A stretch of 64,000 nucleotides of DNA from Kiritimatiellia bacterium (GCA_046484345.1 JAWOJA010000088.1:8271-72270), one strand, 5' to 3'; numbered from the stretch's first letter, positions 21,783-27,966 are shown. The notes: generated from the letters alone by a model not told the origin. Made by a program: numbers and translations.

Positions 21783-23542
21783 CACTCATGATCAACGCGC
21801 GCAAACTGAGCGTTCCGGAAGGCAGCTCAATCCTGGCGGCCGCCCGCGGGGCCGGCATCTCCATACCAACTCTCTGCCATATGGAGCATCGTGAACCAAT
21901 CGGCGCCTGCCGGGTCTGCCTGGTGGAGGTCGAGGGCGCCCGCACCCTGGCGGCGGCCTGCTCCACGCCCGTGACCGAAAACATGGTGGTCCTGACACAC
22001 AGCCCGCGGGCCCGCGCGGCCCGGCGCAAGGTGGTGGAGCTGTTGCTCTCCGAGCACGATGGCTACTGCCCGACCTGCGACCGCAACCGCAGCTGTGAAT
22101 TACGCGCTTTGGCGGACGAATTGGGGGTCGCCCGCCTGCCTTTTGAAGGAGAAAAAACCGCGCCCCACCGGGATGAATCGACTCCCGCCCTGGTGCGCGA
22201 CAACGCCAAATGCGTCAAATGCCGCCGCTGCGTCACGGTCTGCGCGGAGGTGCAGGGCGTGGGCGCGCTGTTCCCGCAGGGGCGCGGCTTCAAGACGATG
22301 ATCGGGCCGGCTTTCACGCGCGATCTCGAAGGCGTGGCCTGCGTGCAGTGCGGCCAGTGCGCCGCCGTCTGCCCCGTGGGGGCCATCTCGGAGAAAAGCG
22401 CCATTCCGGAAATCTGGAAGGCTTTGGAGGATCCCGCCAAGACCGTGCTGGTGCAGACCGCGCCCGCCATCCGGGCGGCGCTGGGCGAGGAATTCGGCTA
22501 TCCGGCCGGCACGCGGGTGACCGGTAAAATGGCCGCCGCCCTGCGCCGGATCGGCTTCGACGGGGTGTTCGACACCAACTTCACGGCCGATCTGACCATC
22601 CTCGAGGAAGGCACCGAGCTGCTGACCCGTCTCAAAAACGTGCTGGTCGACAAGGGCAATGCGGCGCTGCCGCTCTTCACGAGCTGCTCGCCGGGCTGGA
22701 TCAAGTTCGCGGAATACTATTTTCCCGAATTTCTGCCCAACATCTCCACCTGCAAGTCGCCCCAGCAGATGTTCGGGGCGGTGGCGAAAACCTATTACGC
22801 CCAGAAGCTGGGGCGCAAGGCCGACGATATCGTGGTCGTGTCGGTCATGCCCTGCACGGCGAAAAAGTTCGAGGCCCAGCGGCCGGAAATGAACGCCAGC
22901 GGCGTGCGGGACGTGGATTACGTGATGACCACGCGGGAACTGGCCCGGATGATCCGGGAGGCGGGCCTCGATTTCACCACCCTGCCGGATGAGGCGATGG
23001 ACGCCCCGCTGGGGCTCTCCTCGGGCGCGGCCGACATCTTTGCCAACACGGGCGGGGTGATGGAGGCGGCGCTGCGCACGGCCTATGAAATCGTCACCGG
23101 CCGCGAGCTTCCGTCGGACAACCTGCATGTCGGCGCCATCGCGGGCCTGGAGGGAATCAAGGAGGCCTCGCTGCCGGTCACCGGCTGTCTGCCGGCGTGG
23201 TCCTTCCTGGAAGGCGCGGTTTTGAAGGTGGCGGTGGCGCACGGTCTGGGGAACGCCCGCAAGTTGTTGAATCTCATCAAGAGCGGGGCGACCTATCACT
23301 TCATTGAGATCATGACCTGTCCCGGCGGTTGCATTGGCGGGGGCGGCCAGCCCCGGTATACTGATGATGCCGTGCGGCTGAAACGAATCGCGGCCATCTA
23401 CGCCGAGGATGAGGGCAAGCCGATCCGCAAGTCGCACCAGAACCCCGACGTCATGAAGCTCTACGAGGAATTCCTGAAGAAGCCGCTGGGCGAAAAATCC
23501 CATCACCTTCTTCACACGCATTACCATCAGAGGAACACGTAG
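21776..23542 (+). CDS. [FeFe]-hydrogenase HydA-like catalytic subunit with an atypical H-cluster L1 motif (TSCSPGW)
   Basis: The start MLTLMINARKL at 21776 overlaps the upstream stop. It has an N-terminal 2Fe-2S (NuoG-like) domain and 4Fe-4S domains (CVKCRRCVTVC, CVQCGQCAAVCP). H-domain motifs L2 MPCTAKKFE and L3 EIMTCPGGCIGGGGQP are intact. L1 reads FTSCSPGW (22679-22699) instead of TSCCPxW. Confidence 0.9.
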   Translation: MLTLMINARKLSVPEGSSILAAARGAGISIPTLCHMEHREPIGACRVCLVEVEGARTLAAACSTPVTENMVVLTHSPRARAARRKVVELLLSEHDGYCPTCDRNRSCELRALADELGVARLPFEGEKTAPHRDESTPALVRDNAKCVKCRRCVTVCAEVQGVGALFPQGRGFKTMIGPAFTRDLEGVACVQCGQCAAVCPVGAISEKSAIPEIWKALEDPAKTVLVQTAPAIRAALGEEFGYPAGTRVTGKMAAALRRIGFDGVFDTNFTADLTILEEGTELLTRLKNVLVDKGNAALPLFTSCSPGWIKFAEYYFPEFLPNISTCKSPQQMFGAVAKTYYAQKLGRKADDIVVVSVMPCTAKKFEAQRPEMNASGVRDVDYVMTTRELARMIREAGLDFTTLPDEAMDAPLGLSSGAADIFANTGGVMEAALRTAYEIVTGRELPSDNLHVGAIAGLEGIKEASLPVTGCLPAWSFLEGAVLKVAVAHGLGNARKLLNLIKSGATYHFIEIMTCPGGCIGGGGQPRYTDDAVRLKRIAAIYAEDEGKPIRKSHQNPDVMKLYEEFLKKPLGEKSHHLLHTHYHQRNT

Positions 23543-24721: not shown

Positions 24722-25732
24722 CTATTTCATCTTCTCTAGGACTCGCTCAATTTTCTCTACGCGGCGCGCAAGGTGCGGATCGTATTTTATGCGATCCATC
24801 GCCTGGCGAATCTGATATCCCACGCCCGTCCCGCTCTCGATCCCCAGCAAGGGCCCAATGGCACGGCGAGTCAACCCCGCATGCTTTTCGAGCAGCCACG
24901 CCGCCACTCCCTTTGACGGGCAGCCACGCCTTCGTAGCGACAAGTCGGGCAAACCGATCCGCCACCGTGCGGCAACGGCTTCCAACACGTGTTCCGGGGA
25001 CATCCAGGCTTCCGCCGGTCGGAATGACACATCCTCGCCCCTCTCGTGACTTTTCATTAGCGCCCGATGCTGTTCCTCGACCCATTCCCGATATTCTTCA
25101 GCACCGATACTCCGCGGCGAACGCATCATTTCATCCAGGAACTCGTCGTCCGGCCGAACCAGTCCCGCTTCCACATAACGTTCATACTCGCGGTCGGCAT
25201 CCGGACCTTCTCCCGCAATCAGCCTTTTCAATGGCCTGTAGCTGACCCACGCCTCGGGCGGATCAGCGCCAATGTAGGCCCGGTAACTGCTCCATCGATG
25301 CTCGCGTAAAGCCGCCGTCCGTTCCGCCAAAGGGCGGGTATTCCAACTCTTCACTTGAACTGGATTCAGGTGAACGTATCGGCTCAGCTTGAGCAGGTAG
25401 TCATTCCCCGCCACCAGTCGGGCCCCATAGCGGCCCTGCGTCACATGCCCGCAATGGCGGTTGCGCAGGTTATACCCGATCGTGTAGCTAGTCAGGATGG
25501 ACTGCATGAATCGGGTCAAATTCCCGCGTGGAGTATCCACGACCAAGTGGAAATGGTTATCCATCAGGCAGTAGAGGTAGATCCTTACGCCATAACTGGC
25601 GACGCTCTCCTCCAGGCGGCGACATAGCGCCCGACGATCCTTGTCCGTCCTAAATATCGTCTTCCTGCCGTTTCCCCGAACGGTCACATGATAGATCGCA
25701 CCTTCGTATTGAATGCGCAGTGGTCGAGCCAT
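24722..25732 (-). CDS. IS200/RAYT-like Y1 (HUH) transposase with a C-terminal DnaA_C-like HTH
   Basis: 336 aa with YHVTVRGNGRKTIF, the HUH motif MDNHFHLVV, catalytic-Tyr-region QGRYGARLV and YVHLNPV. The C-terminal AAWLLEKHAGLTRRAIGPLLGIESGTGVGYQIRQ resembles DnaA domain IV. Confidence 0.85.
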   Translation of the reverse strand: MARPLRIQYEGAIYHVTVRGNGRKTIFRTDKDRRALCRRLEESVASYGVRIYLYCLMDNHFHLVVDTPRGNLTRFMQSILTSYTIGYNLRNRHCGHVTQGRYGARLVAGNDYLLKLSRYVHLNPVQVKSWNTRPLAERTAALREHRWSSYRAYIGADPPEAWVSYRPLKRLIAGEGPDADREYERYVEAGLVRPDDEFLDEMMRSPRSIGAEEYREWVEEQHRALMKSHERGEDVSFRPAEAWMSPEHVLEAVAARWRIGLPDLSLRRRGCPSKGVAAWLLEKHAGLTRRAIGPLLGIESGTGVGYQIRQAMDRIKYDPHLARRVEKIERVLEKMK

Positions 25733-25959: not shown

Positions 25960-27966
25960 ATGAATGCAATCCTTGAGGAGTTACGGATGCGGGTAGCCAG
26001 ACGACCCGCCCTTCCGCACGGTTCAATTTGGATGCCAGTGGGGCTCGCGCTGGCCGTGCTCCTTTTCCTTGTCAGCCGGGTCAACTACCCGCTGTTTCAT
26101 TGCATCTCCGATATGGCCGCCGTCTTCATCGCCGGCAGCGTTTTCCTCGTTGTCTGGAACGGACGGCGGCACCTGGACAACCACTACTACTTGCTTGTCG
26201 CCATGGGATTCCTTGCCTTCGCCGGGCTGGACTTCATGCACCTGATCGGCAACAAGGGAATGGGCGTTTTCCCCCAGTACGGGAACCTTGGGCCTTCATT
26301 CTATATCGCCAACCGGTATGTATTGGGAGTTTCATTCCTGCTGGCACCGCTCTTCATCAAGCGGAAATTAAACGTTTTCCCGGTGCTCGCGGTTTACCTA
26401 TTGGCGGTGGCGGTGGTGTTGCTTTCCATCCTCGTCTGGGGCGTCTTCCCGAAGACATTCATCGAAGGCAAGGGGCTAACGACGTTCAAGGTTTACAGCG
26501 ACTACGCCGTCTGCCTCATGCTCCTGGGGGGGCTGGGGTTGCTGATCCGGAATCGGGGGGCTTTCGAAACCGGGGTGCTCAGGGTCATCGCGCTTTCTCT
26601 TGTCCTTTTCATCGCCACCGGGCTGGCGTTCACCCTGTATGCCGATCCCTTCGGAATCACGAACGCGATAGGCCACCTGTTCCAGATCGCGGCATTCTGC
26701 TTCATCTACCTTGGGTTCGTGGATACCGTCCTGACTAAACCCCAGACCATCCTTTACCGGAACCTGAAACAGAGCAAAGAACGGATACTCGGACTGAATG
26801 CCGAACTTAAAGACCTGAACCTCAACCTGAACCGCGACATCGCCGCGCGCAAGAAGGTTGAAGCGGCCTTGCGCGAGAGCGAGCACCGGCTGCGCCTGTT
26901 CATCGAACATGCCCCGGCATCGCTGGCCATGTTCGACCGGCAGATGCGCCACCTGAGCGCAAGCCGCCGCTGGATCCACGACTATGGGCTGAAAGATCGC
27001 GTCATCATAGGGCAGTCGATCTACGACGTGTTCTCGGAGCTCCCGGATCGCTGGCGCGAACTTCACCGTCGCGCGCTGGCTGGAGAAGTGCTGCGGATGG
27101 AAGAGGATTCCTTCCGGCGAGCCGACGGCAGCACGCAATGGTTGCGCTGGGAAATCCGGCCGTGGCGTGAGGCGGGCGGGGAAATCGCGGGCATCGTCAT
27201 CTTTACGGAAGACATTACCGGTCGCAAGAAGGCCGAGGAGTCCTTGCGTCAGGCGAATGAATGCCTCGCGCAGGCCGCGAACGACCTGTCCCGCTCGAAT
27301 GATGACCTTCAGCAGTTCGCGCGCATCGTCAGCCACGACCTCCGCGAACCGTTGCGAACGATCAGTGGTTTCCTGTCATTGCTCCATGAACGCTACCGCG
27401 ACCGGCTCGATGACAAGGCCATGGAATACATCGACTTTTCCATCGAGGGAGCGGGGCGTATGTCCAACCTGATCCGTGACCTGATCGAGTACGCCAGAGT
27501 CGAACGCAAGGGCAAGGCTGTTCGGAATGTGGACACCGGGCAGGCCATTGTTAGCGCAACAGCCAATCTTAGGGCGGCTATTCAGAACGCACAAGCCACG
27601 GTCACCCATGATACAATGCCCGATGTCCCTGGCGACCCGACCTTGCTGTCGCAGCTTCTCCAGAACCTTATCGCCAATTCGGTCAAATTCCGTGCGGCCG
27701 GCCGACCGTGCAAAATCCATGTCGGCGTTGATCGAAAAGACAACCATTGGGAATTCTCCGTCAAGGACAACGGCATCGGCATCGACCCCGCCTTTTCGGA
27801 TCGCATCTTCTCGGTATTCCAGCGGCTGCACACTCGCGAGCAGTACGAAGGCACCGGCATCGGCCTTGCCATCTGCAAGAAAATCGTCGAGCGGTACGGG
27901 GGGCGGATATGGGTGGAATCGGAGCCTGGCAAAGGGGCGACCTTTTACTTCACGATTCGCGACTGA
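25960..27966 (+). CDS. Membrane sensor histidine kinase (polytopic N-terminal sensor, PAS, HisKA, HATPase_c)
   Basis: 668 aa with about 7 TM helices (MASE3-like start YPLFHCISDMAAVFIAGSVF), a coiled coil, PAS (LRLFIEHAPASLAMFD...), H-box FARIVSHDLREPLRTI, N-box LLQNLIANSVKF and G-boxes DNGIGI / GTGIGLAICKKIV. No response regulator is adjacent. Confidence 0.9.
   Translation: MNAILEELRMRVARRPALPHGSIWMPVGLALAVLLFLVSRVNYPLFHCISDMAAVFIAGSVFLVVWNGRRHLDNHYYLLVAMGFLAFAGLDFMHLIGNKGMGVFPQYGNLGPSFYIANRYVLGVSFLLAPLFIKRKLNVFPVLAVYLLAVAVVLLSILVWGVFPKTFIEGKGLTTFKVYSDYAVCLMLLGGLGLLIRNRGAFETGVLRVIALSLVLFIATGLAFTLYADPFGITNAIGHLFQIAAFCFIYLGFVDTVLTKPQTILYRNLKQSKERILGLNAELKDLNLNLNRDIAARKKVEAALRESEHRLRLFIEHAPASLAMFDRQMRHLSASRRWIHDYGLKDRVIIGQSIYDVFSELPDRWRELHRRALAGEVLRMEEDSFRRADGSTQWLRWEIRPWREAGGEIAGIVIFTEDITGRKKAEESLRQANECLAQAANDLSRSNDDLQQFARIVSHDLREPLRTISGFLSLLHERYRDRLDDKAMEYIDFSIEGAGRMSNLIRDLIEYARVERKGKAVRNVDTGQAIVSATANLRAAIQNAQATVTHDTMPDVPGDPTLLSQLLQNLIANSVKFRAAGRPCKIHVGVDRKDNHWEFSVKDNGIGIDPAFSDRIFSVFQRLHTREQYEGTGIGLAICKKIVERYGGRIWVESEPGKGATFYFTIRD

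Follow-up and report, generated by a model that had tools for sequence, protein, structure and literature searches.

Serine at an H-cluster ligand position in a Kiritimatiellia HydABC-type [FeFe]-hydrogenase encoded next to a GltD-fused HydB

Serine forms and related complexes described to date

The closest structurally described relative of the hydrogenase considered here, HydA1 of the electron-bifurcating HydABC(D) complex of Acetobacterium woodii (PDB 7Q4V, 7Q4W, 8A5E), carries a serine, Ser301Aw, in place of Cys299Tk as a ligand of the A1 cluster, the [4Fe-4S] subcluster of the H-cluster; this residue has no effect on the FTIR signature of the H-cluster, and the activity of the enzyme is similar to that of the cysteine-containing T. 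kivui enzyme (PMC10021017). The serine ligation is a cryo-EM model in which the Fe-O bond is modelled, not proven, at that resolution, and FTIR, which probes the diiron site, need not reveal a modestly shifted [4Fe-4S]H potential. The same residue recurs in sequence surveys: in Hydrogenedentota, the motif is written xTSCxPxW, and four of five subtypes often have serine as its fifth residue (PMC11406978), and TSCSPGW was remarked on in the 2013 Melainabacteria (ACD20) paper (PMC3787301), in both cases without biochemistry. As a natural variant, the Cys-to-Ser exchange in L1 has long been established; it is widespread and tolerated, and is documented in sequence surveys, structure and spectroscopy.

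Two other systems resemble the locus in the subunits that surround the catalytic one. Stn/NfnABC complexes (PDB 8OH5, 9BOV, 9N5U) are Bfu-type transhydrogenases with a NuoE-like and NuoF-like core; their StnC subunit is a fusion of GltD with a NuoG/formate-dehydrogenase-like part and has no H-domain, while StnB keeps its ferredoxin domain (PMC10482914). For Kiritimatiellia, the accessible part of a recent preprint counts 163 genomes, out of 898, in which an FAD/NAD(P) oxidoreductase module is added to hydB, and in 132 of these an unfused operon occurs as well; the L1 motif is not discussed in that part (bioRxiv 10.64898/2026.10.06.756941). Our search for a biochemically characterised NuoF-GltD fused hydrogenase turned up no report in the literature beyond this 2026 preprint.

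A complete active site apart from one cysteine ligand

The window, a stretch of 64,000 nucleotides from a Kiritimatiellia bacterium (GCA_046484345.1 JAWOJA010000088.1:8271-72270), contains a hydCBA operon preceded by a gene for a CBS-domain protein (Table 1). On its sequence, HydA is classified as the catalytic subunit of a multimeric HydABC/Bfu-type [FeFe]-hydrogenase (group A3 of HydDB; "group A6" in NCBIfam). Its Pfam domain order, 2Fe-2S, His-ligated 4Fe-4S (NuoG-type), 2x[4Fe-4S], H-domain and a small-subunit-like C-terminus, is the M3 architecture (PF02906, Fe_hyd_lg_C, 4.1e-94 over the full profile; PF02256, 1.1e-26; PF13510; PF10588), and the protein scores above the NCBIfam cut-offs for NF040763, labelled "NADH-dependent [FeFe] hydrogenase, group A6" (865.3 bits vs 765), and TIGR02512 (511.7 vs 405.95). 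The genes for the NuoE-like HydC and the NuoF-like HydB overlap or abut hydA, as expected for the HydABC/Bfu type. The features of sensory [FeFe]-hydrogenases (HydS, groups C/D), namely a changed relay cysteine, a PAS or other signalling domain and a lack of NuoEF partners, were not found: the relay residue Cys304 is kept, there is no PAS domain, and the adjacent partners are of the NuoE/F type. The protein begins MLTLMINARKLSV, and alignments of solved homologs, which begin at residue 1-2, support the ATG start of hydA.

Table 1. Features of the hydCBA locus; positions count from the first nucleotide of the window.
Feature	Size or residues	Position	Strand	Remarks
CBS-domain protein	148 aa	17595..18041	+	Upstream of the operon; same neighbor in the three relatives' loci examined (L019, L020, L021)
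hydC, NuoE-like [2Fe-2S] subunit	183 aa	18064..18615	+	PF01257, 1.5e-47
hydB fused to a GltD/StnC-type FAD-NADPH module	1056 aa	18612..21782	+	
hydA, M3-type group A [FeFe]-hydrogenase catalytic subunit	588 aa	21776..23542	+	
L1/P1 motif TSCSPGW	HydA 302-308	22679..22699	+	Gap-free alignment to ITSCSPGW (7q4v_A) and FTSCCPSW (8a6t_A)
Ser305 codon TCG	HydA 305	22688..22690	+	Equivalent to Ser301 of A. woodii HydA1 and Cys299 of T. kivui HydA
L2 motif MPCTAKKFE	HydA 358-366	22847..22873	+	Canonical
L3 motif EIMTCPGGCIGGGGQP	HydA 511-526	23306..23353	+	Canonical; both Cys kept

The best match among solved structures is A. woodii HydA1 (7q4v_A; E 1.5e-194, 54% identity over 566 aligned residues), with which HydA shares the M3 domain order, an L1 with serine at the ligand position, a cysteine just before KSPQ, and canonical L2 and L3 motifs. 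Thermoanaerobacter kivui HydABC (PDB 8A6T; E 2.3e-186), whose structure comes from the same publication as that of the A. woodii complex, has the same family and architecture, but L1 of its HydA has cysteine, Cys299, as the ligand, and the residues before SPQQ are Ala-Arg.

The L1 codons read ACG AGC TGC TCG CCG GGC TGG, in frame within hydA (the translation around them contains LPLFTSCSPGWIKFAEYYFPEFLPNISTCKSPQQMFGAVAKTYY); TSCSPGW, first noticed in an earlier note on this DNA, is therefore what the gene encodes. The description of L2 and L3 as canonical in the same note is borne out too: the translated frame carries ALPLFTSCSPGWIKFAEYYFPEFLPNISTCKSPQQMFGAVAKTYY as well as MPCTAKKFE and EIMTCPGGCIGGGGQP, and the latter two fit MPCxxKxxE and ExMxCxxGCxxGGGQP and keep all three cysteines. 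L1 itself, with the relay cysteine retained, fits the relaxed xTSCxPxW and fails only the strict classical TSCCPxW, as does that of the active A. woodii enzyme. Ser305 occupies the position of Cys300, a [4Fe-4S]H ligand, in CpI numbering. The remainder of the site is in place: Cys304, the proton-relay cysteine; Cys360 and the lysine of L2; Cys515 and Cys519 of L3; and E278, E281, R285 and S324, the counterparts of the proton-path residues E279, E282, R286 and S319 of CpI, all kept.

How would such a site work? The [4Fe-4S] part of the H-cluster would be held by Cys360, Cys515 and Cys519, with Ser305 replacing the fourth cysteine and taking the ligand position as its homolog does in A. woodii HydA1; by the same homology, it is very probable that HydA acquires a normal H-cluster and is active on H2. 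We are confident, by analogy, in the reading in which a Ser-ligated [4Fe-4S]H goes together with a normal H-cluster and H2 turnover in the HydA of a HydABC/Bfu-type hydrogenase. Ligation by serine and activity are argued here from homology, while the sequence, its conservation and phylogenetic spread, the intact remaining active site and the maturase genes are read directly. The earlier note had proposed, as one option, a Ser-ligated cluster "with shifted properties": the ligation agrees with the 7Q4V model, but the shifted properties do not sit well with the normal FTIR spectra and activity of the A. woodii enzyme. Wild-type-like H-cluster spectra and activity, the outcome that the note had itself said would make the exchange functionally neutral, are reported for the A. 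woodii homolog, although not for this protein.

The serine form of L1 is already known and ordinary, and is no sign of a broken enzyme. Serine at the fifth P1/L1 position, reported as common, links HydA to the group A3 BfuA proteins of Hydrogenedentota (PMC11406978) and to those of Melainabacteria ACD20 (PMC3787301); unlike HydA, in which L3 is intact, the ACD20 proteins have also lost one L3 cysteine. In genome annotation, TSCSP should not be taken as the mark of an inactive hydrogenase, and motif filters should accept TSC[CS]PxW.

Absence of hydE, hydF and hydG from the window had also been noted; it is correct but says nothing about activity, because HydF (TIGR03918, 529 bits), HydE (TIGR03956, 297.7 bits) and two HydG homologs (TIGR03955, 486.6 and 444.1 bits), all above the cut-offs, are encoded on other contigs of the genome. 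The two HydG genes lie at C80:6118-7506 (the higher score) and C17:13762-15150, the second within a longer, 596-aa open frame. The genome also encodes a second, canonical HydA (L002; contig C98:799-2550, minus strand; 583 aa), with TSCCPAW and an alanine before KSPQQ; the HydB encoded beside it is of the ordinary kind and ends in a 2x[4Fe-4S] part. This hydABC operon is cut, its contig being only about 3.4 kb long.

Conservation of the serine and its neighbors

The source genome is a 104-contig draft, and an error of sequencing or assembly that turned a true TGC TGC into TGC TCG is one explanation to consider. The best 120 matches from a collection of 5.8 billion proteins, 74-100% identical to HydA and, where a source is named, from Kiritimatiellia MAGs, all contain TSCSPGW, and their L2 and L3 are canonical. 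With each species represented by a single genome, a further scan yielded 80 orthologous loci, 65-85% identical, from about ten phyla (Kiritimatiellia, Lentisphaerae, Omnitrophota, Spirochaetota, Planctomycetota, Hydrogenedentota, Fibrobacterota, Ignavibacteria/Kapaibacteria and others), the cultured Alkalispirochaeta alkalica among their sources; serine is present in 78, encoded by TCG (35), TCC (17), TCA (12), TCT (12) or AGC (2). Because the same motif recurs in all 120 best homologs and in 78 of the 80 orthologous loci, Ser305 is, as far as conservation can tell, a real, inherited state, with a base-call artefact excluded. An error, which would have to be repeated in independent assemblies and in varied serine codons, has a negligible probability and was rejected. 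The residue is ancient. The argument that going from TGC to TCG takes two substitutions, made in the earlier note, does rule out a single miscall, but it has little evolutionary weight because TGC to TCC is one non-synonymous step, TCC to TCG is synonymous drift, and the orthologs use five serine codons.

The two exceptions (L092 and L101) have a TGC codon and read TSCCPGW. They are nested separately inside the serine clade, L101 as the sister of L075 (support 0.96); thus, reversals from serine to cysteine do occur, and are tolerated, within the fused-HydB clade. At a greater distance, the two states mix. Among 129 usable H-domains from the nearest 150 of 1.84 billion 50%-identity representatives, 18 (about 14%) have C-S at the relay and ligand positions with L2 and L3 intact, and these serine forms are interspersed with C-C forms on the tree instead of making up one clade. 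In the order to which the source genome belongs (20 genomes of that order plus the source genome), 24 of 30 H-domain loci have TSCSPGW and six have TSCCPxW.

Several of the representatives have unusual architectures. One (P0124) is a predicted protein of 4122 aa with seven tandem H-domains, all TSCCP and nearly identical to each other; this could be a genuine, if unusual, multi-H-domain polyprotein, or an artefact of assembly or gene calling. Others (P0185, P0153/P0168, P0127, P0211) are fusions of HydA: 2Fe-2S with GltD and HydA; HydA with NuoE and NuoF in one chain; an epimerase-like domain with HydA (TSCSPAW); and WD40 with HydA and flavodoxin.

Could another residue have taken over as the fourth ligand? 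HydA has a cysteine, Cys326, in NISTCKSPQQ, at the position of Ala321 in CpI; Ser305 would then be a bystander. A cysteine just before KSPQ is shared by HydA and A. woodii HydA1, both serine forms, while the TSCCP paralog on contig C98 and T. kivui HydA have alanine. This pattern does not extend to the wider sample: column 326 is cysteine in 14 of 18 serine forms but also in 59 of 92 cysteine forms, and four serine forms do without it; furthermore, Ser301 is the ligand in the published interpretation of the A. woodii structure. Migration of the ligand to Cys326 was rejected, with no covariation with Ser305 across the 129 H-domains, because cysteine at this column is about as common in TSCCP as in TSCSP forms, and we consider it barely credible. 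A column-by-column search for covariation with Ser305 gave nothing convincing: the lowest values, at positions 514 (p about 5e-5) and 367 (p about 1e-4), are uncorrected for the roughly 380 columns scanned and for relatedness, and these signals are weak and probably phylogenetic. Residue 514 (23315-23317), just before the first cysteine of L3, is alanine in 71 of 85 TSCCP representatives vs 6 of 18 TSCSP ones, a weak difference uncorrected for phylogeny; it is threonine in HydA.

The fused HydB and the role of the serine

The surrounding operon, with its GltD-fused HydB, is more interesting than the L1 motif itself. Residues 35-570 of the fused HydB match HydB/BfuB subunits (7t2r_B, 7q4v_B, 8oh5_B); the HydB/StnB matches stop near residue 570 of 1056, where a GltD-type Fer4_20 domain starts, and residues 570-1040 correspond to the GltD-type NADPH module found in StnC/NfnA (9bov_A; 8oh5_C, E 1.6e-96; 9n5u_A). 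Laid out from end to end, the protein is a three-part fusion of a thioredoxin-like 2Fe-2S domain, a NuoF core and a GltD/StnC-type 2x[4Fe-4S]-FAD-NADPH module. By contrast, the HydB of A. woodii (7q4v_B) has 599 aa and ends in a 2x[4Fe-4S] ferredoxin domain; in the hydCBA operon described here, this usual C-terminal domain is replaced by the FAD/NADPH module, and we infer that the latter occupies the place of the ferredoxin-reducing branch. In operon type, and in having an unfused operon elsewhere in the same genome, the locus resembles the fused-hydB hydABC operons described in the accessible part of the Kiritimatiellia preprint (bioRxiv 10.64898/2026.10.06.756941).

Of the 80 orthologous loci, 77 encode the GltD module immediately before hydA, and 65 of these have it in a single reading frame with the NuoF part; the other three loci are cut off upstream, so that every close ortholog with enough upstream sequence has the module. 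The presence of the fused-HydB operon in about ten phyla suggests horizontal spread.

Does a GltD module next to an H-domain that lacks a ligand cysteine make the complex a transhydrogenase? The earlier note had offered, as its other option, a catalytically impaired H-domain, which would fit an Stn/Nfn-like, non-hydrogenase role of the complex. One part of this suggestion has found support, as the partner subunit HydB does carry a module homologous to StnC/NfnA (the match to 8oh5_C above), beside a NuoE-like and NuoF-like core as in Stn/NfnABC. The architecture differs, however: the NuoG-like subunit here has a complete H-domain, which true Stn/NfnABC complexes have lost altogether, and the GltD module sits on HydB, in place of the C-terminal 2x[4Fe-4S] ferredoxin domain that is a feature of the Stn B subunit; membership of the complex in the Stn family was rejected on these grounds. 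Impairment has the missing ligand cysteine in its favor, but an identical serine is found in the active A. woodii enzyme; the strict conservation of the other H-cluster motifs and of the proton-path residues from phylum to phylum is not what one would expect of a dead site; the genome encodes HydE, HydF and HydG; and serine is the majority state in the order, with or without the NADPH module. An impaired H-domain in an Stn/Nfn-like transhydrogenase is thus very unlikely, and the complex is best read, from the domains that it encodes, as a hydrogenase carrying an extra NADP(H) site rather than as a transhydrogenase with a dead H-domain.

If the enzyme is a hydrogenase, is the serine there for the sake of the NADPH module? 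Oxygen ligation generally shifts the potentials of Fe-S clusters, and serine could have been selected to tune [4Fe-4S]H for a special coupling, e.g., with the NADPH module that the fused HydB carries. The residue is almost fixed in the fused-HydB clade (78 of 80) and its codon has changed many times without altering it, a pattern suggestive of purifying selection. Yet in the same order the GltD-fused HydB adjoins only 12 of the 24 serine loci; the other 12 lack a GltD match upstream, where a 2x[4Fe-4S] ferredoxin end is clear in three cases. Serine is also present in A. woodii, in which HydB is unfused and no spectral effect is seen, and two independent reversions to cysteine have occurred inside the fused clade. 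Tuning of the potential for such a coupling is unlikely. Its more specific form, in which the near-invariant serine ligand would shift the [4Fe-4S]H potential and couple H2 to both NADH and NADPH without ferredoxin, is quite unlikely; if true, it would make the serine of the fused-HydB family a functional adaptation instead of a neutral variant. As a mark of the GltD-fused HydB, and with it of an NADPH-linked complex, the serine was rejected because half of the serine loci in the order are without GltD and the A. woodii HydB is unfused.

Downstream of the operon, 2.4 kb separate hydA from a gene for a MASE3-PAS histidine kinase (25960-27966), and within this gap lies an ORF for an IS200-like Y1 transposase (24722-25732, minus strand; PF01797, 1.4e-9).
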